From a virus, in IMG/VR virus record IMGVR_UViG_3300035454_001408, positions 1 to 24,140 of that record: 24,140 bases of DNA; one strand, written 5' to 3'. Below are positions 217 through 23,544 of this stretch, piece by piece. The notes under the pieces are model-generated. The model did no database searches. It was not told the DNA's origin and saw nothing but the letters and a program-made list of their open reading frames with translations. The translations under genes and the position numbers were made by a program. Positions within the stretch are counted from its first letter, which is position 1. Each line of letters begins with the position of its first letter.

Positions 217-1089
217 TCACGTACGTCCATCATTACTGTTTATCCAATCCTCGTCGATAACAACCGGTTTAGCATAACTACTGCACCAGTAACTCCCTAT
301 ATTATAATCACTACTGGCTGCTGCTGCTAAATCCACATTAACCCAGTTACTCCCCAATTCTTTACCACGGACTTTTAAAATGATGTGTCCTCCAGATTTG
401 CAGGTTACACGGCAATAAAGAGCTTCATAATCCATGTCTTCGGCTACTGCTTTCCCTAACTGGCTGTGGTCGGTGCAGTTGAGGGATTGGTTGTTTGCTA
501 AGCGTTGAATCTCTTGTTGTTGATTATATATATCGTTATAGTATCCCTGCCATGTTTTTGCTTTGATTCGGTTATAATACTCGGTGAAGGTGTTATAGGT
601 GCCTACGGCTTTTTCCACGGCTTGGTGAAATTGCGTTTTATTGGTTTGGAATAGGTTGTAGAGTGTCACATAATTCGGTAGTGCTTTGTTTTCATGGTAC
701 CATGCTAATACCCTGCTAAAAGTGTATATAACATCATAGAATGATAGTTGTCCATATTTAGTGGTGTAAAGTGTTGGAGCATAACCATTACCCTTTATGA
801 AGTTGTTAATCTCCTTGGCTAATTGGACGTAGTCCTGTTTTTGTAGTTGTGCCCCATCCTGGATGTTACCGTTTATTTGTAGGGGGTTAGGGTAACTATC
901 AGTGAGTATATCAAGTGGTTTGGGCTTAGTTAATTCAACAACACTAGCACATACCATTCGTAAGTAGGTGGCCTGGTTTACTTGTAAGCCATTGATTGTG
1001 ATTAATTCTGGTAGGTACTTGTTTCCTCGTATGAAGTTCCTTACATCCACAGATGCCTTTCCGACTTCGGTTATTGTTTTAGTTGCCAT
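217..1089 (-). CDS. pei: Pseudomurein endoisopeptidase (PeiW/PeiP-like endolysin), 290 aa
   Basis: N-terminal pseudomurein-binding-type repeats (e.g. DYVQLAKEINNFIKGNGYAP, VLAWYHENKALPNYVTL). C-terminal transglutaminase-like domain with LNCTD (Cys), GGH (His), WVNVD (Asp) and GKEL, as in PeiW/PeiP. Start moved from the ORF-track 1254 to ATG 1089, which has a GGTGGT RBS. Confidence 0.88.
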   Translation of the reverse strand: MATKTITEVGKASVDVRNFIRGNKYLPELITINGLQVNQATYLRMVCASVVELTKPKPLDILTDSYPNPLQINGNIQDGAQLQKQDYVQLAKEINNFIKGNGYAPTLYTTKYGQLSFYDVIYTFSRVLAWYHENKALPNYVTLYNLFQTNKTQFHQAVEKAVGTYNTFTEYYNRIKAKTWQGYYNDIYNQQQEIQRLANNQSLNCTDHSQLGKAVAEDMDYEALYCRVTCKSGGHIILKVRGKELGSNWVNVDLAAAASSDYNIGSYWCSSYAKPVVIDEDWINSNDGRT

Positions 1090-1201
1090 GATTACCACCA
1101 ACACGGCCAAACGGGGGGAACACCCCATCCTTCTGTTTATCCTCAAGTAGTCTTTGGCAGTAATCCGTAAAAGTAGGCCATTCTGCGTTAAATTCTGGCA
1201 T
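1079..1201 (-). CDS. 40-aa ORF MPEFNAEWPTFTDYCQRLLEDKQKDGVFPPFGRVGGNHGN, resembling one PeiW/PeiP-type binding repeat; possible frameshift leader of the lysin
   Basis: Not in the ORF track. ATG 3 nt after the upstream stop, with a GGGGTG RBS. It fills the 115-nt gap exactly and overlaps the lysin start. Confidence 0.55.
   Translation of the reverse strand: MPEFNAEWPTFTDYCQRLLEDKQKDGVFPPFGRVGGNHGN
1112..1126 (-). other. Candidate +1 frameshift site GGG GTG TTC CCC CCG (SD-like hexamer, 3-nt spacer, CCC-C)
   Basis: C6 run (G6 at 1113-1118 on +). A +1 shift joins the 40-aa ORF to the lysin frame with no intervening stop. Confidence 0.35.
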
Positions 1202-1204
1202 AAT

Positions 1205-2626
1205 TTACACCCCATACTTCCCACGGGTGCGATTATACACTTCAACAACCTCATCCGTGGATAATGCTTTGTTCAAAATAGCAACTTCACCAATATCTCC
1301 TTTGAATTTCTCATTAACATCTCCACTTCGCCCTCCCAGTAACATATCCCAAACTACAACCTGGGAACCAACATCAAAAAATGGAACTGAACCGGGTTGA
1401 GAATTACAGTATAATTTCACATATTGCCCATCGTACGTTGCAGTAATCATCATGAAACTATTTTTGATTAATAACCCATCACTTTCTTTAATCTGCGTCC
1501 GTGTGTTGATTGTCCCATTCCCATTCGTTCCAGCCATCAGCACATATAAAGAAGGGTTGCCTGATTTTTGATAAAAAATTAAGAACATTTGGCTGTATGA
1601 AGTGGTCGATATAACTTGGGAATATGATCGATCCATTTCGGAGGGAAGGTATGTCGTTCTAATCCACAAATTGATTGTAAACTCCTCATCCCGCACAAAA
1701 CGGTATAACTTATTTGACGCCGGACTGGTTACAGCAAATATGGAATATATTGTGTTTTCATCAATTACACATATTCCTTCACACTCGTTACAAAATGAAG
1801 GATATTTGCAAAGTATTTCTTTGATCGCCCCCGTTTTAGCAAGACGGTATAATGTGTTGGCTGAGGAAATATAAATGTCCCCATCATAATAATCAATTCC
1901 TTGATTTCCATAAAGGGATGGGATTGTTATGTCCCCTTGAAAGCTAAAATCCGATAGACTATATGATTGTATAGTTGTGGTGGTGCAGTATGGTAAAATG
2001 TAGATTAACCCATCATCTGGGTTCACTGCAACCCCCGTCACGTCTTTTCCTTGTGCTGATACGTCATGACTTTCAATATAAGATAAATCTGATGCGTTGA
2101 ATGTTGATATTTTCTGATCGCTGAATGTTGTGCAGTTTGTGTATGTTTCTGTGACAACATAAATTAAACCGTTATAATAATCAATATCCCCCACATGGTT
2201 CCCCCCAGTGTGGTCATTGATTGTTGCATGTTCTGCTACGATATTGAAATTTGCATCATATTTTCGGAGGAACATGTCATGTGAGGCATACCAATATGTG
2301 CTATCGAAAGTAATGCCCTGGTGCATTCCAATGTCTTTGATAAGCCCATCGTATTTGAAAGGATAAAGGTAATTTACATTCTGCCCACTCGGCATTATAA
2401 CATTCCCTGCTCCTGCGAATGTTTTAACATTCTTCCCAAGGTATGTGGTATCTGTTACTGTCCCGTTTTTGGTTGCGTTGTTGTTGTATCCTGACTTGTC
2501 TTGTAATATTGTTGGTTGTCCTGTGGGTTCCATGTCGTAGTAGACTTGTAAATGTTTTCTGAGTGATTCGGGGAAATCAGTCCCTTTTTTGTGCCGTGTT
2601 AGGGCTTTAGTTTTTGCCCCTAACAT
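1205..2626 (-). CDS. Receptor-binding/tail-appendage protein: LamG/ConA-like domain split by an inserted beta-propeller, 473 aa
   Basis: LamG-type N-part (YYDME...QDKSGYNNNAT) and C-part (FTINLWI, ITATYDGQYVKLY, FKGDIGEVAILNKALSTDEV) flank repeated blade motifs (QGITFD, GDIDYYNGLIY, QGIDYYDGDIY, ECEGI). Confidence 0.7.
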   Translation of the reverse strand: MLGAKTKALTRHKKGTDFPESLRKHLQVYYDMEPTGQPTILQDKSGYNNNATKNGTVTDTTYLGKNVKTFAGAGNVIMPSGQNVNYLYPFKYDGLIKDIGMHQGITFDSTYWYASHDMFLRKYDANFNIVAEHATINDHTGGNHVGDIDYYNGLIYVVTETYTNCTTFSDQKISTFNASDLSYIESHDVSAQGKDVTGVAVNPDDGLIYILPYCTTTTIQSYSLSDFSFQGDITIPSLYGNQGIDYYDGDIYISSANTLYRLAKTGAIKEILCKYPSFCNECEGICVIDENTIYSIFAVTSPASNKLYRFVRDEEFTINLWIRTTYLPSEMDRSYSQVISTTSYSQMFLIFYQKSGNPSLYVLMAGTNGNGTINTRTQIKESDGLLIKNSFMMITATYDGQYVKLYCNSQPGSVPFFDVGSQVVVWDMLLGGRSGDVNEKFKGDIGEVAILNKALSTDEVVEVYNRTRGKYGV

Positions 2627-4172: not shown

Positions 4173-5528
4173 CTATACTTCGTATTTTACTTCCGACCAG
4201 TTCCATTGAGTGATATAGTCGTCAGTAGATGTGGTGGTTATTACTTCCCGCAGTCCATCGAATTTGTCCAATCCACTGTATCCTAAACGGCTGATTCCCT
4301 TAGCATTCAATGGCACTGCGTTGGTTGTTGTGGGGTAGTCGCCGTAACGGTTGTGGGTTAAATCTGTGTAGGTCATGTCTCGCCAATTTGTGGGGGTGGT
4401 GTATTGGATGTAAAGGTCATCATCTGCGGGTGTGGCTGAGGGGATGGTTGTCACGTTATAACTGCTACTGCCTGCCTGTGTGCTGATAGCGAAGTTGTCA
4501 AATGTTGGTTCAACTGCATTGTAACTTCCCCAATTACTTGCAAACATCCCCACATGAGTTGGGACGAACCCAAGACTATTGGTACTATACAAATATGACC
4601 ATCCAGTACCAGTGGTACTGTAATAAAAATAGTATGTTCCATTGATGTATGCGATTAAGAAGTGCATAGGTAGAGTGGTGCTGGTTACTGTTGCCACACC
4701 CCCTGTGTATACATTGTTAACTATTTTGTTAAGCTGGAACCGGTTTGTTGATGCCCCATCGTCCCTCCTTCGACCAATCATCCAAACGTTGTCACGGTTT
4801 TTATATAACATTGCCCCTGCTACTGTCTGGTTGTTTACGGTGTAACTGTTCATTGTTACACTGGCAACCCAATCCCCACTACTTGGGATAGGGGTGTAAG
4901 CTATTGGGGCGTTGTGTGTTGCTGCATCCCATAATCCATTAACTCCCCCACTTACAGATATATTAAGAGTTGTGGTTTCTCCAACACTTCCAGCGGGGGT
5001 TGATACTGTCCAGTTGGCACCGATACTGGCATCGTTGAAGTTATCTGTGAAATGGTAACGGTGGGTTAGTGTTAATGTTTCATAGTTGCTGTAACGGACT
5101 GGGAGGTTCACTCTTAACTTCCCCGCATTTCCAGTACCTGTTTCTACGGTTAGGGGGGCTGTGCATGCACTTTGTGTGAGGTCAAACCCCACCACCTCAG
5201 TGGTTCCAGGGCTGGTGGCTGTGGTGAATAATTGTTCCCCAACCAGTTCTTCCCCTCCATTGTTTAAACCGTAGAGTTGGAGTAGTGTTTCGTATTCAAC
5301 CGGACTGGCTTCGGTGTACCGGTATAATTCGTTTTTCCAGCTTGTCCATAGAACGTTGCGTGATTCTAGGGGGAAATGGGTTTTTATAGTAGTTCCTTCC
5401 ACGACGGTGGGGGAGGCCATCATTGGTGTAAAGAGTAGGTTATCTCCATCGCTTGCCACGTACCCTGTTGGGGTTGTGGAAGGGTCTGCCATGTCACTAC
5501 CAGTATACTTGTATGTTCGTGTAACCAT
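4173..5528 (-). CDS. Tail-tip protein with central ConA-like lectin/glycoside-hydrolase-associated beta-sandwich, 451 aa
   Basis: FTDNFNDASIGANW...QTVAGAML...YFYYSTTGTGW...HVGMFASNW...PTFDNF is a ConA-like pattern. It follows the hub gene; AGGAG RBS. Confidence 0.6.
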   Translation of the reverse strand: MVTRTYKYTGSDMADPSTTPTGYVASDGDNLLFTPMMASPTVVEGTTIKTHFPLESRNVLWTSWKNELYRYTEASPVEYETLLQLYGLNNGGEELVGEQLFTTATSPGTTEVVGFDLTQSACTAPLTVETGTGNAGKLRVNLPVRYSNYETLTLTHRYHFTDNFNDASIGANWTVSTPAGSVGETTTLNISVSGGVNGLWDAATHNAPIAYTPIPSSGDWVASVTMNSYTVNNQTVAGAMLYKNRDNVWMIGRRRDDGASTNRFQLNKIVNNVYTGGVATVTSTTLPMHFLIAYINGTYYFYYSTTGTGWSYLYSTNSLGFVPTHVGMFASNWGSYNAVEPTFDNFAISTQAGSSSYNVTTIPSATPADDDLYIQYTTPTNWRDMTYTDLTHNRYGDYPTTTNAVPLNAKGISRLGYSGLDKFDGLREVITTTSTDDYITQWNWSEVKYEV

Positions 5529-7781: not shown

Positions 7782-10142
7782 CTATATTCTCCTAATGTTT
7801 GTACGGAGGTCTGGTTGTGTTAGGAACTCATTACCAATAAATGAGTAATAATTATAGGATGTAGGGGGTTGCATTTGGTCATAAACCCCTATCCCGGTGA
7901 TTTCACTAGCAGGAATACTGTCTGATTTGATTGTTGTGGGGTCTTGTTTCATTATCATCATCCCATATTGTGCAGTAGAAGTAGGGGGCATACTCCACAA
8001 ATTGCTCCCAATTGATGGGATTGGGGCTATTTGGGTATTGTCCACATAAAAGGTGGTGCTTGTCTTTGTTTTTGTTAATATTTGAAGGTCTACTTTGGCG
8101 GTTTCATTTGATGATATTGTGAAATCTGCATCATACCAGGCCCATTCTCCTGTACCCCAAACGAGGGTAATATTAGGACTCCATGTGCTTTGTATTAATG
8201 AATTGTCAGCTCTCCTTTCTGATAAGTAGAGCCCAACGGTGGTGCTGCCTCTTAAAAATGACCCAACATTTAATATTAGTCCTGCGAGTCCTGTTGTGCC
8301 AAACTCGGAGCGTTGGGCTTGAACAACCCCCTCATAATTTATTAAATTACTTGTATCTACTTTTAAACAGTACCCAGTTCCACCATACCCCCCACCTGTT
8401 TGTGAGAGTACCGATGAAACCGGATTCCACCCTGATGTATCAGTTTCAATGTTATAAGCATTCAAAGTGAGTAGGTTGTGAGGGCGATACATGAGGGCAT
8501 AGGCTTGTGTGAGCATTGACACATCAGCCCCAGCGGCTAAACCATTCTGGTTCACACCATCATGGTAACAGCTAGTACCCTTGGTGTAACTTAAAACATC
8601 ATTTGGATGTTCAACGTAAACAAAGGGTTTACCTCGGTTAAGTTCCCATAACGTAGTATTTATTTGGTATATCTGTTTTTCTGGACCAAGACTAATTGGT
8701 TTTAAAAGATTAATCTTTTCACCATCTAAACCAAAACTATTAAGAACAGCCCATCCATTTGTTGGATCATAATAACTGAAAACAATAGGAGTGGTAGAGC
8801 TTGCATTGGTAGTTAGTTTAACTAATCCGTTGGTTACATAGAAATCTGCTGGGTCTAATGTTTCATCTGTCCATGTTATAAGTCGGGGAGTGGAATCTGT
8901 GTAACTACTGTTATATCCCTTAACTGCCCCCTTGTAAAGTTGTGATGCGTCTTCTTGGTAGAAATAGAGGTCTTCTGATGGGTTAACATAACATGGGATA
9001 GTGCCATCACTACTTGTCCGGGTGAAATCTGGGGTAACTAGTGGTGTGGTGGCAGGGAGGGCTACAATATTGTTAGATACTGCGTCTTCCATATTATAGA
9101 CTTTTAGGAACTCTGATTCTATAGTGGCACTTGTACTATCCCAATTTGCAAACTGGAAGGTGTATTTAACATTCCAGCTTTCACTAATCCATGTTACCCC
9201 ATGATATTTTTTAACATACCCACTGCCAGTGTCCACATAGATAGTGAGGTATCCTATTGGGTCAGTTACCATTTTCCAGTTAATGCTCTTGGCTGATGTA
9301 GCAGTAGGGGGAATTATAACTCCTATTGAACCAGAAGCGTTGAAAAGGTAAGCAGCATAGTTTGGTTGGCTATTGTCAACGTTTAAAACCACAAGTACGG
9401 TGTTATTATATGGGTTGGCCGATGATGCGGTCACCGTACGTGGTCCGAAGAAAAAGTTAAGAGCGTTCTTGTAGCCAGTGGGGGTGGAAGCATATTTCAT
9501 GTTTAATTCTAAAGTCCACGGCTTGTTAAAAGTACCAACACTTTGAGTTACTACTTGTCCTGCTGTACCATCCACTTTACCTTGGCATGTGAAGTTCAAA
9601 TCACCATCAGCAGTTATACTAGGCGAGGCGGTTGCACTGCTGTAACTCATTGCTGACCATATACTGCTACTGAAAGTAGAGAATGTGTCATTTAAGAGGT
9701 AGTCTTCGGTTTCAAGAAGGTAACTGTGTTCAATGCGTGTTCCGTCATTCACCCCCGGAGTGTAGGTTTGTTCGAGGTATTCGGTTTCGTTGGAACTGAT
9801 TTTCTGAGCGGTTACTTGCAAATGGACGTATTCTGCTCCGAGGTCTGTTGTGGGTTCTGCATCAATGATTATGTACCATCCTCGGTGTAATATGTCTTCA
9901 TTGTCCCGGAGGGTGTTGCTGGTGTCTATCCATACTACTCCCCAAGGGTTGTCGCCGGTGGTGATGTTTAATGGGCCACTATGTTCTGTGTTGGTGTTGT
10001 TGTGTCTTAGTCCAAGTATTTGTCGTGCTTCTATGTTTGGGACTATGATTGTGAAGCTTTCCTCGCCTTGGGTGGTGAGGGAGTTGTCGTCGTATAAGTG
10101 TGCACGTGGTATTTCGATTGGGCCTATTCTTCCTTCGCTCAT
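7782..10142 (-). CDS. Distal-tail/baseplate protein with lectin- and CBM-like domains (evolved Dit-like), 786 aa
   Basis: First tail gene after the TMP; GGTGA RBS; ConA-like segment and a CBM4/9-like segment (NIETDTSGWNP...YCLKVDT...FYVDNTQI). Confidence 0.55.
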   Translation of the reverse strand: MSEGRIGPIEIPRAHLYDDNSLTTQGEESFTIIVPNIEARQILGLRHNNTNTEHSGPLNITTGDNPWGVVWIDTSNTLRDNEDILHRGWYIIIDAEPTTDLGAEYVHLQVTAQKISSNETEYLEQTYTPGVNDGTRIEHSYLLETEDYLLNDTFSTFSSSIWSAMSYSSATASPSITADGDLNFTCQGKVDGTAGQVVTQSVGTFNKPWTLELNMKYASTPTGYKNALNFFFGPRTVTASSANPYNNTVLVVLNVDNSQPNYAAYLFNASGSIGVIIPPTATSAKSINWKMVTDPIGYLTIYVDTGSGYVKKYHGVTWISESWNVKYTFQFANWDSTSATIESEFLKVYNMEDAVSNNIVALPATTPLVTPDFTRTSSDGTIPCYVNPSEDLYFYQEDASQLYKGAVKGYNSSYTDSTPRLITWTDETLDPADFYVTNGLVKLTTNASSTTPIVFSYYDPTNGWAVLNSFGLDGEKINLLKPISLGPEKQIYQINTTLWELNRGKPFVYVEHPNDVLSYTKGTSCYHDGVNQNGLAAGADVSMLTQAYALMYRPHNLLTLNAYNIETDTSGWNPVSSVLSQTGGGYGGTGYCLKVDTSNLINYEGVVQAQRSEFGTTGLAGLILNVGSFLRGSTTVGLYLSERRADNSLIQSTWSPNITLVWGTGEWAWYDADFTISSNETAKVDLQILTKTKTSTTFYVDNTQIAPIPSIGSNLWSMPPTSTAQYGMMIMKQDPTTIKSDSIPASEITGIGVYDQMQPPTSYNYYSFIGNEFLTQPDLRTNIRRI

Positions 10143-10192: not shown

Positions 10193-10615
10193 ATGAAAAA
10201 AGAAATATTGATTATAGAGGTTATGTTACTGGGAATTGTGGCCATATCCGGATGCACGAGTAGTGGAGTGACAGATAAAGCATATAATGGGAGTTATATG
10301 TCTTTTCAGTATCCAGAAGAGTTTAAAGTGGCTGAAGCGAATGCGGGGCGTACTGTTGCAGTAGTAGGGAATGGGAATATCCTCATCAACCAATATAGTA
10401 ACATAGAGAATCAAAAAATGTTCGTTAACGATTTAGGAGTTAAGGAAAATATCACTAACCATTCTGATCCATTCAACTACACCACAGGGTTGACTAATAT
10501 GGAGGATGAAGCAATGTATTTCACCCGTGAGGGGAAATATTATGTTATCACTTATCCCCCTGCTTTAAGGGATAAAGTTGTTGGTTTGGCTAGGAGTATT
10601 CGGAACAATCAGTAA
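10193..10615 (+). CDS. Lipoprotein moron (ISGC lipobox, PsbP/DcrB-like fold suspected), 140 aa
   Basis: MKK + hydrophobic core + ISG-C21; the SFQYPEEF motif is typical of PsbP-related proteins. Only + strand gene; its stop overlaps the TMP stop by 7 nt. Confidence 0.8.
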   Translation: MKKEILIIEVMLLGIVAISGCTSSGVTDKAYNGSYMSFQYPEEFKVAEANAGRTVAVVGNGNILINQYSNIENQKMFVNDLGVKENITNHSDPFNYTTGLTNMEDEAMYFTREGKYYVITYPPALRDKVVGLARSIRNNQ

Positions 10616-13506
10616 TTCTTAACTATTTGGTCGTTTGCCTTAGCAACATCTTTTTTAAATTCTTTCCAATTGTATACTGGGGCATTGAATATGTATGTAT
10701 TTCCCCCATTGCCTCCACTGGGGCCTCTTGGGGGTGCCCTCCAACTTCCTGTTAGGGCATGGTTAGCTATGTCCCGGTCTTGTCCTCCTATACGTGCATA
10801 GACGTGGGGGTTTCCCATCCATGTGCTTTGTATTAGTTCTGCCGGTATTCCCCACGCATTGGCTAAGGCTATCTGGGCTAGGCTTCCATCTACACAGTTC
10901 CCTGCGAAATTAGATAAGGTTTGACTGATACTTTGTCCTATTCCTCCATAAGGGAGGTAGGTGAACCCACTTGCCATGTTTAAGAAGGATTTAGTGCCTT
11001 TTAATGGTGGGCCAAAGGCTAAACCTCCCCCACCGCCACTTCCTCTTCCTGGAACAGATGGCCCTCCACTTTGAATGAATTGTCCAACAATGGGGAGGCT
11101 GGCTACAAAGTTCACTACACTTCTCCATGCCCCTTTTATGCGTTCCATTGCCCCACTCGCCCAGTCTAATAATCTGGCAACCAATGGGTTTCCAGTAACA
11201 GCCCAGACTGCTGCGTTCCACCGAGTCATAACATAATTAACGGCATAATCCCACATAATCCGGAGGAAATTAACTGTGTTATTCCATGCCCCTTGTATCC
11301 ACGCTCCTGCTGCTGAGAACCCGCTGCTTATCCAATTCAACCCGTTTTGGAACCATAAAACAGTATTGTTCCATGCTCCTTGGAAAAAGGCAACGGTGTT
11401 CCCCCATGCTCCTTGAACGTAATCCCCAAAATCTTTAAATTTAGCTCTTGCACCAAATATGAACTCCCTGAATGCCAAATCAGCTTGTAAAAATCCACTT
11501 TCAACGGCAAAATATATCATATTCCCAATATTGCCTTCATCCATTGCCAATTGGAAGTTTTCGCTGCTCTTGGCAAAGGAATCATAGGTTTGTTTATATG
11601 ATTCAAAGTCCTTTCCAGCCTCTTTCCATGCTTTAGAATAATTGTCTGTTCCTTTAGTAATTTTATCCAGCGTTCCTGCCTGACGGTCATAAACACTACT
11701 AATTTTATTTCCCAACTCAGCGGTTTTCATTAATTCATCATTATACTCTGCCGTGGTGCCTTTTTGTTTCACATATTCTTCGGGTGTGATTCCTTCTTTT
11801 GCAGCGGCAGCCCTTGTTTTGGATGAGGATATTTTGCCTTGTTCAAGCCCTTCTAAATCCGCCCTCATTCTCTGGGCGTTAGTCCACGCATCTTCTGCAT
11901 TCTTAGCATTAATAGTGTTTGTCTCTACTCGTTTACGTGCATCTGCTATTTGTCTATCAATCTCAACGGTGCTTCTACCCGCAGCGACTTCCCTTGCCCG
12001 TGCATTGGTTAAACTTTGAATACTTTTGTTAAGACTTTCATTCTGACTTTTTAAACCACCAACAACCTCATTTTTCTCTTTCTCTGCGTTATTCCATGCA
12101 ATGGTGGCACTCTGGGTTTGGCTAATGTAATATGCTAAGCCTACGAGGGCAGCAACCATTATCCCTACCCCTGCGGCTGCGGCTATCATTCTTTTATTTA
12201 GTCCTCCGAGGGTGTCCCCCCATGATATTGATGATGTTTTAGCCCCGTTTGCTGCGGTTTTATATTTAAGTGTTCCTCCAGCGAGTTCTAAAATTTTACC
12301 CGCAGCATGACTGGCCCCACTACCAATAGTAACCAGTGTGGGCCAGAAGAACCCTAGAATAGTGGCTAGTCCAGTGAATGCAATAATGGCTCCACTAATT
12401 TGTGGGCCTAATCCTTCAAAGATAGCAGTTAAACCGTTCACTAAGGCTTCCATTCCAGGCATTAATGCTTCACCCGCAGCAATACCAGCGAGTTGTATTT
12501 TTTCTTTAAGGTTTTCAAACCGGTCAGCGAGACTGGTTACTTTACTACCGTACCCTGCAATCCCTTTATCTTCATATAACTTTTGAAGAGCAGCAAAGAA
12601 GGTTTCGGGTTTAGACTTATCAAAACCACGGTCATACAATTCCTGCATGTCGCTGATACCAATCTCTTTCATACGTTTGATACCATCACTACCTCCTGCC
12701 ATTGCATCTTCAATAGCACGACCAGCATCCTCCGCACTTCTTCCGTTGGCTTTGAATAATCCAATTGTATCCCCTAGTGTGCTGTTATATTGTATCATCT
12801 GGTCAGCAGACATTTTATGAGATAATCTGACTAATCTCCATGCACTTAGCATCTCTGGCTGTGATACTTTACTTGCACTCTCTGCATATTTAGCGGTAGC
12901 CACGTCTAAGCGTTCAACCTCAGCAACTCCCATACCTACAAATTTAAATAGGCTTTTGGCTTCTTCAACTGCCATTGCTGCCCCTACGGTAAACTGGTAG
13001 AATGCTGCCCCGACTAATGCACCCATCCATACATTAAAAGAAACCACACTGTTGGTTAATGAGGCGAGACTATTCCCGGCAGCCATTATCCCACTACCAA
13101 CCTTACCAAAAGCAGCACTACCAACACTACCCACGGAGGACAGTGCACTGCTTATCCTTGAAGTAGTGGTAGCCACAGGGGTGATAGCAGTCTTATAAGC
13201 ATTACCCATAGTAGTGAATGAAGAACTGGCAGTACTGATGGCCTTATTCATCCCAGATAACTGGTTTACTGTGCCTCCAATGGCCTTACCCATATAGGTG
13301 GCTTGGGTTGTTGCTCCTTTGACGCTGTTAGTGTAAGTTTGAACACTTTTAGCAGCATTGTTCATTCCCCGTGTGACGGCTTGGCTCCCTGTTGCCATTC
13401 CCTTAGTGGCACTCTGAGCGGATGCCATTGCCGCTTGCATCTGTTTCTGGAATTGAGATGCGTTAAGAATCAGTTGTGCTTCAATCGTGCCGGCGTTTGA
13501 TACCAT
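10609..13506 (-). CDS. Tape measure protein with C-terminal transglutaminase-like Cys-His-Asp domain, 965 aa
   Basis: TMP N-terminus (AGTIEAQLILNASQF), Ala/Gly-rich helical body, tape_meas-like core and 11-aa Trp repeats; GNCVD/PHVY/DRD motifs near the C-terminus. Start moved to ATG 13506 (GGAGA RBS). Confidence 0.92.
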   Translation of the reverse strand: MVSNAGTIEAQLILNASQFQKQMQAAMASAQSATKGMATGSQAVTRGMNNAAKSVQTYTNSVKGATTQATYMGKAIGGTVNQLSGMNKAISTASSSFTTMGNAYKTAITPVATTTSRISSALSSVGSVGSAAFGKVGSGIMAAGNSLASLTNSVVSFNVWMGALVGAAFYQFTVGAAMAVEEAKSLFKFVGMGVAEVERLDVATAKYAESASKVSQPEMLSAWRLVRLSHKMSADQMIQYNSTLGDTIGLFKANGRSAEDAGRAIEDAMAGGSDGIKRMKEIGISDMQELYDRGFDKSKPETFFAALQKLYEDKGIAGYGSKVTSLADRFENLKEKIQLAGIAAGEALMPGMEALVNGLTAIFEGLGPQISGAIIAFTGLATILGFFWPTLVTIGSGASHAAGKILELAGGTLKYKTAANGAKTSSISWGDTLGGLNKRMIAAAAGVGIMVAALVGLAYYISQTQSATIAWNNAEKEKNEVVGGLKSQNESLNKSIQSLTNARAREVAAGRSTVEIDRQIADARKRVETNTINAKNAEDAWTNAQRMRADLEGLEQGKISSSKTRAAAAKEGITPEEYVKQKGTTAEYNDELMKTAELGNKISSVYDRQAGTLDKITKGTDNYSKAWKEAGKDFESYKQTYDSFAKSSENFQLAMDEGNIGNMIYFAVESGFLQADLAFREFIFGARAKFKDFGDYVQGAWGNTVAFFQGAWNNTVLWFQNGLNWISSGFSAAGAWIQGAWNNTVNFLRIMWDYAVNYVMTRWNAAVWAVTGNPLVARLLDWASGAMERIKGAWRSVVNFVASLPIVGQFIQSGGPSVPGRGSGGGGGLAFGPPLKGTKSFLNMASGFTYLPYGGIGQSISQTLSNFAGNCVDGSLAQIALANAWGIPAELIQSTWMGNPHVYARIGGQDRDIANHALTGSWRAPPRGPSGGNGGNTYIFNAPVYNWKEFKKDVAKANDQIVKNY
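11200..11427 (-). repeat. 11-residue (33-nt) Trp-periodic TMP repeats
   Basis: QGAWGNTV, QGAWNNTV and QGAWNNTV with DNA CAAGGAGCATGG / CAAGGAGCATGG / CAAGGGGCATGG; aromatic residues recur about every 11 aa. Confidence 0.8.
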
Positions 13507-13552
13507 ACTTGTTATCTCCATTTAAAATAAGAATTAGAATTAAAAAAAATAG

Positions 13553-13939
13553 TTATAAGACTTGTCGGACTGTTCTGGTCATTGTTTCAATGATTAAACT
13601 GGCTTTGTTGTCCACGTTGTCACTGAGGTAATGGTCTTTCCCACCTTTAGGGTGATTTAATTGTTCGTCGTGCTGTTTACGTGCATAATTGAACATATTA
13701 TGAGCAGCGTATTGGTTAAACTGAACAGATGCTGAGGCATAGGACATATTAGTTTCTGTTAGGTGTGTTCCTCCTCCCCCCCGTAGGTCTCCTTTATCTA
13801 AGGGAACATCAGGTTTGGTGAAAGTTAATAATTTACTCCCTCCTTCCATCACGGCTTTGGGTAGTTGTCCTGCGACTTGTCCTTGGGTCCGTCGCATGTT
13901 ACTCTCAAAATTAGCCATGTTAAAAATCAATGCAGCCAT
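13553..13939 (-). CDS. HK97 gp10-like tail-completion/neck protein, 128 aa
   Basis: VPLDKGDLR...YARKQH...PKGGKDHYL fits the P-x-D-T/K-G-x-L-R / YA-x-x-x-H family pattern. ATG 13939 lies just after the frameshift-product stop. Confidence 0.7.
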   Translation of the reverse strand: MAALIFNMANFESNMRRTQGQVAGQLPKAVMEGGSKLLTFTKPDVPLDKGDLRGGGGTHLTETNMSYASASVQFNQYAAHNMFNYARKQHDEQLNHPKGGKDHYLSDNVDNKASLIIETMTRTVRQVL

Positions 13940-13943
13940 ATTC

Positions 13944-14542
13944 TCATCCAACTCCCATACTCTTTAACCGACTTTCCTGCCTAGCCTTCAACTTTGCTTT
14001 AACTTTAAGCTTCTCATCCTCATCCTTATCCATTTGTGCCATAATATCTAGGTTTCTCATGTGCATTGCCACATGGAGATATGGCATTTTCCATACAGTG
14101 TCTTCTTGCCAGTGGAAACGGTCACATAGACTGGTAACGGCGAATGATGGGCCTACCCCATACTTATCCGGCTTTACTTTCCCTTACCATCCTCACTTGT
14201 ACCATACTGGTCTTCCATTTGGTCTGCGAATCCTTCTGATACGAACTCTACTATGCTCATGAGTTGTGGGATTGTTAGGATGTTCTGGTTAAGGTCGGGT
14301 ATTATCCTTTTGATTATTTCACGCATCTGGGTGACTTGGCTCATCTTTTCTTCTTTAATGTCTTCCCCTGTGATGTCTTCAAAGTTTCCTAATGAGTCGA
14401 ATAGGATTGGCATTAATACGAAGTCTTCATAGGCTGGTTGGAATACTTTGTACTTGTTTCCACCTACTTTAACATCTCCGATACTGAGGTTTAGTGCGTC
14501 TAGGTCTAATAGTCGGTTTCTTTTCTTTTTAGCGTTTACCAT
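13944..14542 (-). CDS. Tail assembly chaperone, -1 frameshifted long form (gpGT-like), 199 aa
   Basis: After G GGA AAG the -1 frame stays open for 77 codons (VKPDKYGVGPSFAVTSLCDRFHWQEDTVWKMPYLHVAMHM...SMGVG) to TGA at 13944-13946. It has no independent RBS/start and is absent from the ORF track. Confidence 0.85.
14174..14542 (-). CDS. Tail assembly chaperone (gpG-like), 122 aa
   Basis: Follows the tail tube gene; GGAGG RBS; ends in the slippery heptamer. Confidence 0.85.
   Translation of the reverse strand: MVNAKKKRNRLLDLDALNLSIGDVKVGGNKYKVFQPAYEDFVLMPILFDSLGNFEDITGEDIKEEKMSQVTQMREIIKRIIPDLNQNILTIPQLMSIVEFVSEGFADQMEDQYGTSEDGKGK
14177..14183 (-). other. -1 programmed frameshift heptamer GGGAAAG
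   Basis: Correct X XXY YYZ phasing, identical to the lambda G-T heptamer, directly before the TAA stop. Confidence 0.88.
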
Positions 14543-14616: not shown

Positions 14617-15603
14617 TTAGCTTATGTCGGCCAAGTTACTGGTTATAACTGCACTGGCAGTCTTAGAATCACTGGCACTGTAAACAGCAGTGAAGGCTAT
14701 ACTACTCTGCACGGCTTCGTCACCTTTAAATGGCAATGGAACATCATCCAAATACACTTTAGGCAACGTCAAAACCAGATTCTGATACTTGTCAGCAGTT
14801 CCAGGGAGTAATGCCCCCGTCCAAGTGAATACTAAGGCTTTTTCAACCGGACTGTCATCAAAGGTGTTAGTATCTCCCATGAAGTCTTCGTAGTAACTCC
14901 AGTCCTCAAAGAATACGTCCATTGAACCGGTGCATGCGAAGTATGGGGTGTGTTGTAGTCCGTAGTTTAATCCATGCCCTGCTGTGTAGAATGCTTCTGT
15001 GGCTCTGTCGATGTTTATACTGGCGTTTAAGATGTTGTTGGCAGTGGTTCCACCATAGGTGATTGAGAAGTTGGAGAAGTTGAATGCCTTATTTGTAGTG
15101 TAGGATGGGGTTAGTGCGGTTTGGGATTTATCCATCATGTAACTGAACCCGTCCACGCTGACTTCGAGTTTTTCCTTGTTTTTGGCTTCCAGTTTGAGTG
15201 ATTTGAAAACCACGTCACTGTATCGTTTGTAGTTAAGGTTTCGTATCCCGTTGGCTAGGGTGAATATTGGTAATGTGCTTGACTGTGAATAGGTGTAACC
15301 ATACGCAGGGGTGCTGCTGTATGTGGTTGCTGTGTATGAGCCGAACACTCCGTAGAATGCGTGTTCTAATCCTCCGGCAGGGTATGCAGGGAAGGTTATA
15401 CTACCTTCTGTGGTTACTGATGGTGTGATAGGGGCGTGGTTTTTATCGGTGTTGGCCCTGTGTTCTGTTTCATAACTCCGGTCTGGTTTACTGTTCCAGT
15501 CTAAGTCGGTGTATGGTATGTAAACGTCTGGGGCAACGGGGGTTCCTGGACTGGCTTGTACGCTGATTGCCGCATAAGATTCACGTCCACTGTATAATCC
15601 CAT
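14617..15603 (-). CDS. Major tail tube protein (siphovirus type), 328 aa
   Basis: Position after the terminator; pattern SGRESY...PGT...TEGSITF...FTL...FKSLKL...ASINIDR...TGSMDVFFE...LTLPKV. No sheath gene is present. Confidence 0.85.
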   Translation of the reverse strand: MGLYSGRESYAAISVQASPGTPVAPDVYIPYTDLDWNSKPDRSYETEHRANTDKNHAPITPSVTTEGSITFPAYPAGGLEHAFYGVFGSYTATTYSSTPAYGYTYSQSSTLPIFTLANGIRNLNYKRYSDVVFKSLKLEAKNKEKLEVSVDGFSYMMDKSQTALTPSYTTNKAFNFSNFSITYGGTTANNILNASINIDRATEAFYTAGHGLNYGLQHTPYFACTGSMDVFFEDWSYYEDFMGDTNTFDDSPVEKALVFTWTGALLPGTADKYQNLVLTLPKVYLDDVPLPFKGDEAVQSSIAFTAVYSASDSKTASAVITSNLADIS

Positions 15604-17155: not shown

Positions 17156-17191
17156 AAAAAAAGTGGGTTGTAAAGGACTATATGTGTCCTT
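17156..17191 (-). terminator. Hairpin + T7 terminator after the major capsid gene
   Basis: 6-bp stem AAGGAC-N7-GTCCTT (17173-17191) overlapping the stop, then CCCACTTTTTTT. Confidence 0.65.
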
Positions 17192-18104
17192 AGATGGCAC
17201 TGGCTTTGTAACAGAAACTGTTAGGCTTCTTAACAGCGTACAAGGTTTCGCCAATGAACTCCACGACCTCGTTGTGTGGATATTTCTGTTCCTTGTACCG
17301 GTAGACGTTAACCATCCGGAAGTTAGGTGACACACTGAATCCTTCGGGTCGGTAGGCGTAGATGTCCATTGGTTTGTAGGCAGGTCTACTATCAAAACCA
17401 AGGTAACTTCCTTCTGCAACTTCGGTACTGTTAGTTACTTCGTGGATTGAGACTCCACGGATTCTGGGTATGTCTTCTTCTCCACGTGGACTGATAGCCC
17501 AGTTACGGTCTATTCCAACCATGTACTGTTCCAGTTCAGAGTAGTTGTCTTCATGGACATAGAGGTCAGTTAATCGGGAACCATAACCTGATACTTTGAA
17601 GGCTTTTTTGAAGTTGATTATGTCCTTAATAGGGTCGGCAGTGTCTTCACTCCATGCTGGGGCTCCATCGACTTCATTTATCTCGTTGGTGGTGTTTTTG
17701 AAGGTGGTAACAATGTCGTTGTTGATTTTCTGTGCCATCACATAACCGATACGTTCGGTGGCTCTCATGAGGTCGTTCACGATTTCGGAACGTTTCATGT
17801 CTCTTTCGGATACTTTCATTTGTAAACCGAAGGGTCGTAGCATCCCTGCTTTCTGAGTTATGGGACTGATCTCGACGGTGGTTAGTTCGGATAATTCACC
17901 AAGGTCTAATGGTTCACCAGTCACTTCATTGGTCACATCTTCACCGGCGGTGGTGAGGTCTTCATGGTAGGTTACTGATACGTTGTCGGTGTAGGTGACG
18001 TTGAACATGTTAATGAAGTCCAAGTCTTCCTCCATCTGTTTGTTTACGATTCCTTCGATGAGGTTTTTTCTTAAAAACTGTTTTGGGGATAATGTTAGGG
18101 TCAT
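17190..18104 (-). CDS. Major capsid protein (HK97 fold), 304 aa
   Basis: E-loop (GELSELTTVEI), spine helix (DLMRATERIGYVMAQKINNDIV) and A-domain (WSEDTADPIKDI...LYVHEDNYSEL); AGGAG RBS. Confidence 0.9.
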   Translation of the reverse strand: MTLTLSPKQFLRKNLIEGIVNKQMEEDLDFINMFNVTYTDNVSVTYHEDLTTAGEDVTNEVTGEPLDLGELSELTTVEISPITQKAGMLRPFGLQMKVSERDMKRSEIVNDLMRATERIGYVMAQKINNDIVTTFKNTTNEINEVDGAPAWSEDTADPIKDIINFKKAFKVSGYGSRLTDLYVHEDNYSELEQYMVGIDRNWAISPRGEEDIPRIRGVSIHEVTNSTEVAEGSYLGFDSRPAYKPMDIYAYRPEGFSVSPNFRMVNVYRYKEQKYPHNEVVEFIGETLYAVKKPNSFCYKASAI

Positions 18105-20607: not shown

Positions 20608-22143
20608 TTAACCTCGCAATAACCCATAACCTCTTAGTTGGTTCATTAATTCGTCCACACGTTCATCCACTTGTCCTTGTCCTGCTGCTGCTTGTTTGGC
20701 TAGGTTTTGTATTGGTTGTACCTGTCCTCCTTGGATGGAGGGTGTGAATCGGACTATTTTGCCTTTCTTGTAGTTCTGCTCCTCTGTCATGTAGCGTTTG
20801 AAGTAGGTTTGCATGATTACTTCGGGGTCTGCTCCCATGACTATGAGTTTTTCGGCTATTTGGGCGAGTACGAGTTCGTCTTCGAGTTCTAGTTCCTTGT
20901 ATTTGATAAACACTTTACCTGCTTGGTCTTCATAGCCTGATAGGCGTAGTTCGTGGTCTATTAGGTATTTTTCGAGGTAGTATTTGTTGAACTCTCGGAG
21001 GTATTCTATGACGGTCACCTGTCCTAGGCTACCAGATAGTTGTTCTCTTGCTACTGCTCTGTTGGATGATTGTGATTCAAACCGGCTGTCCGGGGTTAGG
21101 AGGGCTGAGCGTATCTCTTGTTTGAGGTAACTGAGGTATTCTTTGAACTCTGCTACTTTGCCGTTCCCTATCATTTCGGGTTTGGTTCCGTATGGGTAGA
21201 CTATGAGGTCTTTTTTTTCTTTTTCGGCGAATGCATCGGCGATTCCTGCCATTGCCTCGGCTTGTTTGGCTTGTTTTTGTTCTCTGGTGTCGCCGGGGTC
21301 TGCTCCGAAGTTGAATTGTATGTCTTTGTTTCCAACTTCTACTCCGAGGGATACAGCGGCTCTTCTGGCGGCTATGGGCATGGCTCGTTCTATTTCTCTT
21401 TTAATGTAAACGTAATCTAAGACCTTATAGACGAGGGATTGGCCTTCTCCGTCTTGTTCAAAGATTTTAGGCATTATTATCTCGTCTGGTGTGAAGTTTT
21501 CTTCATCTGGAACACCCATAAGAGAGGTTAATGTTTCAAAAGTAGTGTTTTCCCAGTCATCTGGTACGTCGTAACGCATGAATTTCTGTTTATAACCCTT
21601 TATTTCCCCAGTCTGAGGGTCTGTTACTTCCACAAAGTCGTATTCGTCTTCGTCGTATAGGAGGAAGGTTACATTCTGGATGGTTTTGGGGGTTATTGTT
21701 TTGTGTATTAGACATGTGCCGTCCACGCAACATTTTAGATCCATTTCCCACATTATCTGGCCTAAATCCCATTCTCGGCATTTCTCTTTGATGTGTTTAA
21801 CAGCTTCTTTGAGTCGTTTATCCTCATTGGTGTCACTGTCGTCGGTGTGGCCCATTATATCCCACCCAGTGTTGGTGATAATACACTGGCTGATGATGGA
21901 ACTCCATGTAGTGGGGTCTATTTCCATAGCTCGCCTACTGTTTTCTAGTGTTCTTTCTACGAGGATTTGGTCGGTTAGTTGTTTGAGTTCTCTGGTGTCT
22001 GTGCTTCCTTGTTCTTGGCTGTATCCTTGGTAGTGGCCTGTGCGTTCTGTTAGTCCTACTGGTAATTCTTGTATGCTTCGCATACTGTTGTTTAGGATTC
22101 GTGTGGGGTTGAGTCGGTTGGTTAGGGTTTTTATGGGGTTCAT
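20608..22143 (-). CDS. Portal protein, 511 aa
   Basis: Between terL and the gp7-like gene; size and helical pattern fit. Start moved to ATG 22143 (GGTGA 7 nt upstream). Confidence 0.88.
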   Translation of the reverse strand: MNPIKTLTNRLNPTRILNNSMRSIQELPVGLTERTGHYQGYSQEQGSTDTRELKQLTDQILVERTLENSRRAMEIDPTTWSSIISQCIITNTGWDIMGHTDDSDTNEDKRLKEAVKHIKEKCREWDLGQIMWEMDLKCCVDGTCLIHKTITPKTIQNVTFLLYDEDEYDFVEVTDPQTGEIKGYKQKFMRYDVPDDWENTTFETLTSLMGVPDEENFTPDEIIMPKIFEQDGEGQSLVYKVLDYVYIKREIERAMPIAARRAAVSLGVEVGNKDIQFNFGADPGDTREQKQAKQAEAMAGIADAFAEKEKKDLIVYPYGTKPEMIGNGKVAEFKEYLSYLKQEIRSALLTPDSRFESQSSNRAVAREQLSGSLGQVTVIEYLREFNKYYLEKYLIDHELRLSGYEDQAGKVFIKYKELELEDELVLAQIAEKLIVMGADPEVIMQTYFKRYMTEEQNYKKGKIVRFTPSIQGGQVQPIQNLAKQAAAGQGQVDERVDELMNQLRGYGLLRG

Positions 22144-22161
22144 GGTCTTGTTCACCGGAAG

Positions 22162-22236: not shown

Positions 22237-23544
22237 TTATCCAAACATGGGTTCTTCCCATTGGATCTTACTCTGAATCTCATCATTAACAGCATACCGC
22301 AAAGCATCAGGACTGTGATCATCACGTTTAACTGGTTTTTCAATACCAAGCTTCTGAGCCTTACTATCCCAACTATAAATCTGCATCTGCTTAATACAAT
22401 CACGTGCCTTACTTTCATGAATACGGATACGGTTATCACGCAACATGTTTTGAACAGTCTTAATGCCCTCTAGTACATCGGGGTTTACTGGTGCGATACT
22501 GAAACCATCCCTCATTAGTTGGTTGTTGAAACTGGTACTGTCGTGGGGTACTACTACCCGGTTACATTGTCTGTTCCCTACAAACCTACTTAACTGTTCG
22601 GATAGTTCACTGTCAGTGTACTGTATATCAGTGGCTCCTGCATCATGGTAAAACTCATCCAATAAATCATAGCAGAGTACCCGGTCACGAGTATCTCCGC
22701 ACCAACGCCGTGCCCAGTACTGGAAGACGGCAACCGTACTAGTACCATAATCAATACTAATAAACTTGTCAATGTAATTCTTTTTAGCCTTGTTGAACGT
22801 ATGATCTTCAATATTGAACATTGGGTAGACTGCTCCTTCGGCACTAACCCATTGTCCGAGGATGTATCGTTGGTAAAACACTCCAGTGTAGGCCCTTTTA
22901 CGGCTTTCCACGTAGTCTTTGGGGAGGTATGGGTTGTCGTCCATTAGGAAGTTCCAAACCTTAAGGTCGCCTTTACGTAATAACTCTTTATTCTTCAAAT
23001 AGTCGGTGTAGAACCAGTGGTAGGGACTGTCAGGGTTGCAGGTAACAAAAACATGACTGCCATCTACACTGCAACGGCTGTATGCCATGTCGAAACCACT
23101 CTTTGGAGCAGTGGTCACCTCATCACTATATAATCCAGCTACCGTCATTCCCTGTATATCATCTGCACTACTCTCATCCTTCAATGCCACGAGGTAGATT
23201 AGTTTATCAACGTCATTGTAGGTGAACTCTAACTCTCCACCCATCATACTGTACCGTATATCTTCATCACGGAAGCCCATACTCATGAGTAACCGTTTAA
23301 GCCCACGGACCACATTACGCTTAATGGTCTTCTGAGATTTACCAGTTACTAAGAACTCATCATAAGGATGCTCCAGGATGTGCTGAAGGAAACGGAAATT
23401 AGCAACAACAGTCTTACCACTCCGTACCGCTCCAACGAGGCAGTTAATATGAGCATCGCTGTTAAACATGAAGTCTGCTTGCTTTGGCGACAACGTTTGC
23501 AGTTCCATGCCTCCAGACTTGTTCTTGCTTCTATCTCTAGCCAT
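22237..23544 (-). CDS. terL: Terminase large subunit (PBSX-like), 435 aa
   Basis: Walker A GAVRSGKT, Walker B LYSDE, coupling motif TCNP, and nuclease motifs SIDYG and DDHSPDALRY. Confidence 0.95.
   Translation of the reverse strand: MARDRSKNKSGGMELQTLSPKQADFMFNSDAHINCLVGAVRSGKTVVANFRFLQHILEHPYDEFLVTGKSQKTIKRNVVRGLKRLLMSMGFRDEDIRYSMMGGELEFTYNDVDKLIYLVALKDESSADDIQGMTVAGLYSDEVTTAPKSGFDMAYSRCSVDGSHVFVTCNPDSPYHWFYTDYLKNKELLRKGDLKVWNFLMDDNPYLPKDYVESRKRAYTGVFYQRYILGQWVSAEGAVYPMFNIEDHTFNKAKKNYIDKFISIDYGTSTVAVFQYWARRWCGDTRDRVLCYDLLDEFYHDAGATDIQYTDSELSEQLSRFVGNRQCNRVVVPHDSTSFNNQLMRDGFSIAPVNPDVLEGIKTVQNMLRDNRIRIHESKARDCIKQMQIYSWDSKAQKLGIEKPVKRDDHSPDALRYAVNDEIQSKIQWEEPMFG

Follow-up and report, generated by a model that had tools for sequence, protein, structure and literature searches.

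The stretch of DNA analysed here, referred to as the window, comprises positions 1 to 24,140 of the IMG/VR viral contig IMGVR_UViG_3300035454_001408 (completeness estimate 48%), and the gene under study is that of its tape measure protein (TMP), which encodes close to its C-terminal end a small domain resembling the catalytic part of the Pei endolysins PeiW and PeiP. All large genes of the window lie on the minus strand and form the structural module of a siphovirus, with a lysin at its end. This lysin combines a Peptidase_C71 domain with pseudomurein-binding repeats, from which it follows that the host is a methanogen with a wall of pseudomurein. The window accordingly holds the structural and lysis genes of a siphovirus infecting Methanobacteriales. 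The original prediction, made from the sequence, had placed a Pei-like Cys-His-Asp domain at the end of the TMP and proposed that this virion-associated domain drills the host wall at infection. The features of the TMP gene are the following.

10609–13521, minus strand: TMP gene (P0001), a single uninterrupted reading frame of 970 amino acids plus stop
12121–12402, minus strand: two hydrophobic, membrane-span-like segments, residues 374–399 and 443–467 (Kyte-Doolittle means of 1.85–2.34 in a 19-residue window)
11122–11424, minus strand: Trp-rich repeat region, approximately residues 700–800, with units of the GAWNNTV type, as read from the sequence
10996–11070, minus strand: upstream Gly/Pro/Ser-rich linker, residues 818–842 (61% Gly+Pro+Ser over residues 815–845)
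10735–10995, minus strand: transglutaminase-fold, Pei-like cysteine-peptidase core, residues 843–929, supported by model, structure search and profiles
10888–10899, minus strand: NCxD nucleophile motif, Asn875-Cys876-Val877-Asp878, with the Cys codon at 10894–10896 (Asn, Cys and Asp in 106 of 106 aligned domains)
10804–10806, minus strand: codon of His906, the catalytic His candidate (106 of 106; paired by hhalign with the Pei His)
10771–10773, minus strand: codon of Asp917, candidate third member of the triad (106 of 106; paired by hhalign with the Pei Asp)
10699–10734, minus strand: PPxGP motif (here PPRGP) followed by a Gly-rich linker, residues 930–941, from the alignment of 106 domains
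10612–10698, minus strand: conserved C-terminal tail, residues 942–970, with a VYxxxxFxKxVxxAN helix (kept in three alignments; helix 115–131 of the model)

The identity of the gene as that of a TMP is borne out by the single 970-residue frame, by matches of the protein to six PHROG tape-measure families (among them 167, 305, 1272 and 58, at E-values of 1e-8 to 3e-4) and by its canonical position in the tail module, where it comes immediately after the gene of the tail tube and two small open reading frames (ORFs) putatively encoding chaperones. The protein is made of five parts, namely a helical body, the two membrane-span-like segments, the Trp-rich repeats, the linker-flanked peptidase and the conserved tail of approximately 30 residues. 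Hydrophobic segments of this type are a common feature of TMPs that become inserted into the membrane of the host. Tryptophan residues of the repeat region are found at positions 706, 717, 723, 730, 741, 746, 757, 768, 773, 787 and 799. The globular domain, of approximately 95 residues, lies within the TMP reading frame, and homologues encoded in tail modules show the same architecture. The Gly/Pro linkers that had been described around it are present at residues 818–842, a segment with a predicted local distance difference test score (pLDDT) below 50 in the first AlphaFold model, and at residues 930–941; likewise, the peptides that had been quoted from the TMP and from the lysin are all present in the translations. 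Within the downstream linker the PPxGP stretch (Pro930 in 96, Gly933 in 97 and Pro934 in 90 of the 106 domains) is conserved too strongly for a mere spacer. If bacterial siphophages are a guide, the C-terminal tail would serve to anchor the protein in the tip of the virus tail.

We have analysed the conservation of the domain across homologues, of which a word-indexed search yielded 18 and an exhaustive HMMER search over 1.84 billion cluster representatives yielded 102. In nearly all of these 102 representatives, which are proteins of 400–2000 amino acids, the domain match ends at most some 60 residues from the C-terminus. The residues Asn875, Cys876, Asp878, His906 and Asp917 are present in all 106 aligned domains, at identities that go down to approximately 30%, and the same five are also invariant in a 60-sequence alignment. 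The codons of Cys, His and Asp are exactly those originally assigned, and loss of the triad among homologues, which would have spoken against an enzyme, is nowhere observed in this set. Further, the NCxD motif is common to the TMP domain and to five aligned Pei sequences.

A first AlphaFold run with 18 sequences was weak (mean pLDDT 59) and was replaced by a run with 60 homologues, in which the mean pLDDT is 84.2 and the core blocks reach 92–96. In this model Cys876 opens the helix formed by residues 39–52, His906 is on the strand 67–74 and Asp917 comes directly after the strand 77–79, an arrangement predicted to be of the papain/transglutaminase type: indeed, in the modelled fold the Cys at the N-terminus of a helix is followed by His and Asp at the next strands, as in the transglutaminase/papain-like superfamily. 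As modelled, the TMP domain is thus an intact and strongly constrained Cys-His-Asp peptidase fold. The top ten chains retrieved by Foldseek are all transglutaminase-like cysteine peptidases, with E-values all above 1e-3. VIA-align, run exhaustively and with no prefilter against 48,161 PDB representative chains, was needed to separate Pei from the rest of the superfamily. It ranked first the PeiW catalytic domain (8jx4; Z 10.2, root mean square deviation 2.8 angstroms, 98 residues aligned) and second PeiP (8z4f; Z 8.8, deviation 2.9, 95 aligned). These two alone reach Z≥8, being followed by LapG (7.4) and TglA (7.3), and classical transglutaminases are found at Z 4.2–4.6. A further structure comparison ranked the chains in the same order. 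HMMER searches against the PDB sequences gave no meaningful match with either the single sequence or the profile, so that the link to solved structures is established by fold comparison only. These results agree with the Pei-like fold that had been proposed, the predicted fold being transglutaminase/papain-like with PeiW and PeiP as nearest neighbours.

A distinct scenario resulted from the comparison of sequence families. Peptidase_C71 (PF12386, cut-off 22 bits) does not match the TMP or its C-terminus at E-values up to 1, nor any of 22 members of the TMP-domain family at E-values up to 0.1. On Pfam Transglut_core (PF01841, cut-off 23 bits) the window domain scores 18.4–19.7 bits (E 0.001–0.003), six of the 22 members match at E≤0.1, and the homologues P0023, P0025 and P0028 exceed the cut-off at 29–39 bits. 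A profile of five Pei sequences scores 24.9 bits on the TMP of the virus Drs3 and 15.2 bits on that of MSTV1. When profiles were compared with hhalign, the five Pei catalytic domains were matched at a probability of 86% (E 5.4e-6) with Cys, His and Asp aligned, and the Transglut_core domains found in cellular proteins that Methanobacteria-type genomes encode at 96% (E 1.4e-9), with 36% identity over the core. These cellular domains, which score 75–94 bits on Transglut_core and 20–35 bits on Peptidase_C71, are therefore the closest relatives by profile and share the motif (G/A)NCVD, and in at least one case they are fused to pseudomurein-binding repeats (PMBR). They differ from the TMP domain in that they belong to proteins other than TMPs, have neither the PPxGP motif nor the TMP tail, and score 75–94 bits where the TMP domain scores 18–20. 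Judged by sequence, the TMP, Pei and cellular domains are three related groups with a common NCxD nucleophile motif, and the TMP domain is a distinct family, outside Peptidase_C71 and nearer to Transglut_core, for which Pei is the nearest solved structure. The label Pei-like thus holds for the structure, PeiW and PeiP being nearest, but not for the sequence, in which PF12386 membership is lacking and Transglut_core is closer.

Two further observations were made among these relatives. Some TMPs (P0025, P0028 and also the one at G052:C4:2044252-2044911) have two tandem transglutaminase-like domains, one of the family studied here and the other scoring 39 bits on Transglut_core. In genome G008 (contig C43), a long frame at L025:2008-3300 (minus strand), which the Pfam search of this genome placed in a frame of 930 amino acids, encodes a complete Transglut_core domain (94 bits) preceded by four pseudomurein-binding repeats, and it scores 20 bits on Peptidase_C71 as a secondary match. 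It was examined as a neighbour of the L001 TMP, though the phylum-wide search gives the contig of that TMP the number C213, so that the two may lie on different contigs; the protein could be a wall enzyme of the cell or a second one of a virus.

The virus of the window has its own Pei endolysin with PMBR repeats, and the TMP domain is therefore a second enzyme, separate from it, as originally proposed. The features of the lysin are the following.

217–1254, minus strand: Pei-type endolysin with PMBR repeats and Peptidase_C71 (C71 3.3e-12; PMBR 2.2e-11; PHROG 37889 5e-16)
475–477, 385–387 and 331–333, minus strand: codons of the lysin triad Cys260, His290 and Asp308 (NCTD...GGH...VD)

PHROG 37889 is the family of the pseudomurein endoisopeptidase. 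The lysin start codon is uncertain: the ORF start lies 55 codons upstream of the more plausible Met56 (1087–1089), and the residues before Met56 do not look like part of a gene and run into the end of the gene preceding the lysin (1205–2626). Two PMBR matches are found in the lysin and none in the TMP at E-values up to 1, in agreement with the earlier description of the TMP domain as free of binding repeats. The Cys-to-His spacing of exactly 30 residues that had been noted in both proteins is correct (Cys260-His290 in the lysin, Cys876-His906 in the TMP). However, this gap varies from 25 to 32 in homologous TMP domains and is longer than 30 in the four other aligned Pei sequences, and His and Asp are 11 residues apart in the TMP domain but 18 in the window lysin; the equality is thus partly luck and deserves little weight. 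Direct comparison of the TMP end with the window lysin by BLASTP is not significant (E 1.3), though Cys, His and Asp are aligned. The proposed parallel between the two proteins is nevertheless beyond chance, on the basis of the profile comparison, the invariance of the triad in 106 domains and the structure.

In respect to the characterized enzymes PeiW (virus psiM100) and PeiP (virus psiM2), which form MEROPS family C71 and PF12386 and whose structures are 8jx4 and 8z4f, the TMP domain has the same fold and the same NCxD...H...D order, and the viruses that encode them infect the same group of hosts. PeiW and PeiP are free, late-expressed endolysins with N-terminal PMBR, whereas the TMP domain is embedded in a structural protein of the virion and stands outside PF12386.

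We have also investigated the distribution of the domain. A tblastn survey of 50,697 GenBank phage records with three different family members matched only the TMP genes of the Methanobacteriales viruses vir249, PhiF3, Drs3, MSTV1 and vir075, and no bacterial phage among these records was matched. Three of the carriers are cultured, namely PhiF3 (on Methanothermobacter), Drs3 (on Methanobacterium formicicum) and MSTV1 (on Methanobrevibacter smithii), and their TMPs have the same domain in the same place as that of the window; with the profile of 106 sequences the TMPs of Drs3 and MSTV1 score 91 and 86 bits, and they are longer proteins (1403 and 1493 amino acids, versus 970). The GenBank annotation of the three TMP genes names no enzyme domain, and that of Drs3 (ORF31, MH674343.1, L030:332-4543) reads 'prominin' despite the C-terminal peptidase domain. 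The TMP of psiM2 gave no match with the TMP-domain profiles, which indicates that the domain is not universal in viruses of Methanobacteriales.

A pattern scan of the GTDB species genomes yielded four loci, three of them in Methanobacteria-type metagenome-assembled genomes (MAGs) and one (L003, CAXXJL010000009.1) on a contig binned as a 'Bacteroidaceae bacterium'. This contig encodes a lysin with PG_binding_1 and Peptidase_C71 together with capsid and tube genes of the archaeal-virus type; given its Pei C71 lysin it is a mis-binned methanogen virus, and the public record thus seems to contain a binning error. The TMP domain is also present in a complete IMG/VR genome of 49.8 kb, which has instead a lysin with PG_binding_1 and Peptidase_C39, whose N-terminal 200 residues or so are 62% identical to the product just upstream of the Pei gene of L003. 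The lysin modules thus differ, with PG_binding_1 joined to Peptidase_C71 at L003:19522-20172 versus Peptidase_C39 at L017:17848-19194, a clear case of lysin domain shuffling between two related viruses. Endolysins of methanogen viruses belonging to the Peptidase_C39 family are termed PeiR-like in the paper on MSTV1. The contigs with the most divergent members are siphovirus tail modules, one of them with a C39-like lysin, and the tail tube proteins of two others have vir249 as sole relative among GenBank phages. Searches for Pei (PF12386) and PMBR in related IMG/VR records, which are mostly fragments, were mostly empty or below threshold.

Run over 329 genomes of the phylum to which the Methanobacteriaceae MAG G009 belongs, the profile picks up transglutaminase-like paralogues of cellular type in 313, and this search, being swamped by them, gave no contrast between pseudomurein and S-layer hosts. 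The N-terminal TMP body linked 33 of 93 metagenomic homologues to known methanogen viruses, a number limited by the fact that TMP bodies diverge too fast. Still, every homologue whose host could be deduced belongs to a virus of Methanobacteriales, and among the homologues sampled the lineage appears confined to viruses of pseudomurein hosts. An equal frequency in viruses of other hosts had been named as evidence that would count against a wall enzyme; across the GenBank records, the GTDB scan and the related contigs, viruses tied to pseudomurein hosts were the only carriers found.

The remaining genes of relevance in the window are listed below, several large tail proteins being encoded downstream of the TMP gene and before the lysin.

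22237–23544, minus strand: large terminase
20608–22155, minus strand: portal
17190–18104, minus strand: capsid protein
14617–15603, minus strand: tail tube protein (Pfam Phage_tube_2, 4e-21), with no match among GenBank phages
14174–14542 and 13553–13951, minus strand: two small ORFs between tube and TMP, with no Pfam match, putative tail assembly chaperones by position
7782–10142, minus strand: large tail protein of 786 amino acids, the first to follow the TMP, with no Pfam match, its role being assigned from gene order
1205–2626 and 4173–5528, minus strand: tail proteins with lectin/glucanase domains of the concanavalin-like type (Laminin_G_3, 2.5e-13, and GH43_C2, 8e-7)
10193–10615, plus strand: ORF of 140 amino acids, convergent with the TMP gene and overlapping its stop codon

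The two lectin-like tail proteins are, from their domains, candidate receptor-binding or glycan-binding modules. The ORF at 10193–10615, the sole sizeable plus-strand gene within the tail module, has no Pfam match, and its N-terminal signal-peptide-like segment ending in Cys (AISGCTSS) gives it the look of a lipoprotein; it may be a moron gene, with a function such as superinfection exclusion.

Bacteriophage TMPs such as T5 pb2 and Tmp of mycobacteriophage TM4 are reported to carry wall hydrolases, generally with peptidoglycan-specific folds (metallopeptidase, transglycosylase or Rpf-like motifs) acting on bacterial murein. Like the domain described here, they lie near the C-terminal end of the TMP, have no wall-binding domain and occur in viruses with a separate endolysin; the window domain differs in being a cysteine peptidase of the transglutaminase fold, in an archaeal virus. 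TMPs of enterococcal phages with lytic transglycosylase motifs are mentioned in a survey of these phages (PMC10194240). Altogether, the fold of the TMP domain, its position and its distribution tilt the balance towards a wall-cutting enzyme of entry, for which we regard it as a reasonable candidate. The TMP C-terminus of bacterial siphophages resides in the tail tip and exits the virion first. If the same applies here, the tethered enzyme would meet the wall at the point of contact, where it would cut peptide or isopeptide cross-links of the pseudomurein locally, allowing the hydrophobic segments of the TMP (374–399 and 443–467) to reach the membrane and the DNA to pass. Binding repeats would not be needed in this arrangement, the enzyme being held in place by the tail, and the separate PMBR-bearing Pei endolysin would carry out the global breakdown of the wall at exit. 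On the whole, the observation behind the original prediction is confirmed and its interpretation supported: the modelled triad has a papain-like arrangement, it is kept in the homologues, and the hosts found are those with pseudomurein; the wall-drilling function itself is what we infer.

A number of points weigh against this assignment. A folded domain of 95 residues, in at least three copies, may not fit the lumen of the tail tube, and if the lumen is too narrow the domain would be stored unfolded or in a cavity of the tip. The window domain remains below the Transglut_core cut-off (18.4 versus 23 bits) and none of the 22 members matches C71. The transglutaminase fold spans proteases that cut proteins, such as LapG, as well as cross-linking enzymes, and does not by itself fix the substrate. 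Also, the Methanobacteriales siphovirus psiM2 has a TMP devoid of the domain, which is therefore not essential for crossing pseudomurein, and the host assignment of most metagenomic homologues is indirect.

These points leave room for other functions, of which two survive best, both of them unlikely. One is that of a maturation protease, which would cut the TMP itself or neighbouring tail proteins at assembly or ejection, and not the host wall. Bacterial siphophage TMPs are indeed often processed near the C-terminus, as are lambda gpH and T5 pb2, fold neighbours such as LapG cut protein substrates, and the Gly/Pro brackets with the conserved PPxGP motif (Pro930 and Gly933) could provide a cleavage or docking site. 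A general role in assembly would, however, hardly track one type of wall, and the homologues that can be assigned all belong to Methanobacteriales viruses; in addition, the structure search brings up enzymes of the wall, PeiW and PeiP, as nearest neighbours rather than protein-processing peptidases, and tandem copies in some TMPs suit differing bond specificities better than self-cleavage.

Equally improbable in our view is an entry enzyme directed at another target, namely a protein layer at the surface or the adhesin-like proteins covering the cells of Methanobacteriales, instead of the pseudomurein peptide. The greater proximity of the sequence to cellular Transglut_core domains (E 1e-9) than to Pei (E 5e-6), the TMP being free of PMBR repeats, and the many cellular paralogues detected across the phylum are all compatible with such a target, but the structure search ranks PeiW and PeiP clearly first and the NCxD motif is shared with Pei. 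Moreover, at least one relative of the cellular type is fused to four pseudomurein-binding repeats, so that this group is wall-associated too.

Far less probable is a true transglutaminase, which would attach the TMP or the tip of the tail through an isopeptide bond, either to peptides of the wall or to a different tail protein. Fold and triad are shared by transglutaminases and peptidases, and it is established chemistry that pseudomurein peptides hold Lys and Glu as possible partners; yet the classical transglutaminases score far below PeiW and PeiP in the structural comparison, and no precedent in a phage TMP is known to us. Least credible of all is a purely structural role, as a plug or spacer in which the peptidase fold persists without catalysis: the position of the window domain below the Pfam threshold would fit with it, but 106 sequences that otherwise drift to approximately 30% identity retain Asn, Cys, Asp, His and Asp without exception, which argues for catalysis.

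Concerning novelty, TMP lytic domains of bacteriophages and Pei endolysins are both well known, and what is new is their combination, together with the separate sequence family. Of the ways in which tailed archaeal viruses cross the pseudomurein wall, only exit, with the enzymes PeiW, PeiP and PeiR, has to our knowledge been studied. A full-text literature search, the scope of which left out the 2023 Nature Microbiology compendium of methanogen viruses, retrieved no description of such a TMP domain nor of a transglutaminase fold in a TMP. In the MSTV1 paper the word 'transglutaminase' is absent, and the only pseudomurein enzymes mentioned are endolysins of the PeiW- and PeiR-like types. We consider the chances even that the domain represents the first cell-wall enzyme to be recognised in the virions of archaeal viruses, in the form of a distinct TMP-built family of tethered pseudomurein peptidases that includes those of Drs3, PhiF3 and MSTV1 and is kin to the Pei endolysins and to host wall-associated transglutaminase-like proteins.

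With its intact and conserved peptidase, the tip end of the TMP provides a concrete and testable candidate for the piercing of the wall on entry, and since the domain occurs in three cultured virus-host systems (Drs3, PhiF3 and MSTV1) the experiment is feasible now. Small, repeat-free domains that cut pseudomurein could extend the set of enzymes explored against rumen and gut methanogens, and the tie to wall-associated cellular transglutaminase-like proteins bears on the origin of the Pei enzymes. If the proposed role is true, the pseudomurein-walled archaea and their viruses would have independently reached the solution of bacterial phages, in which separate wall enzymes serve entry and exit.

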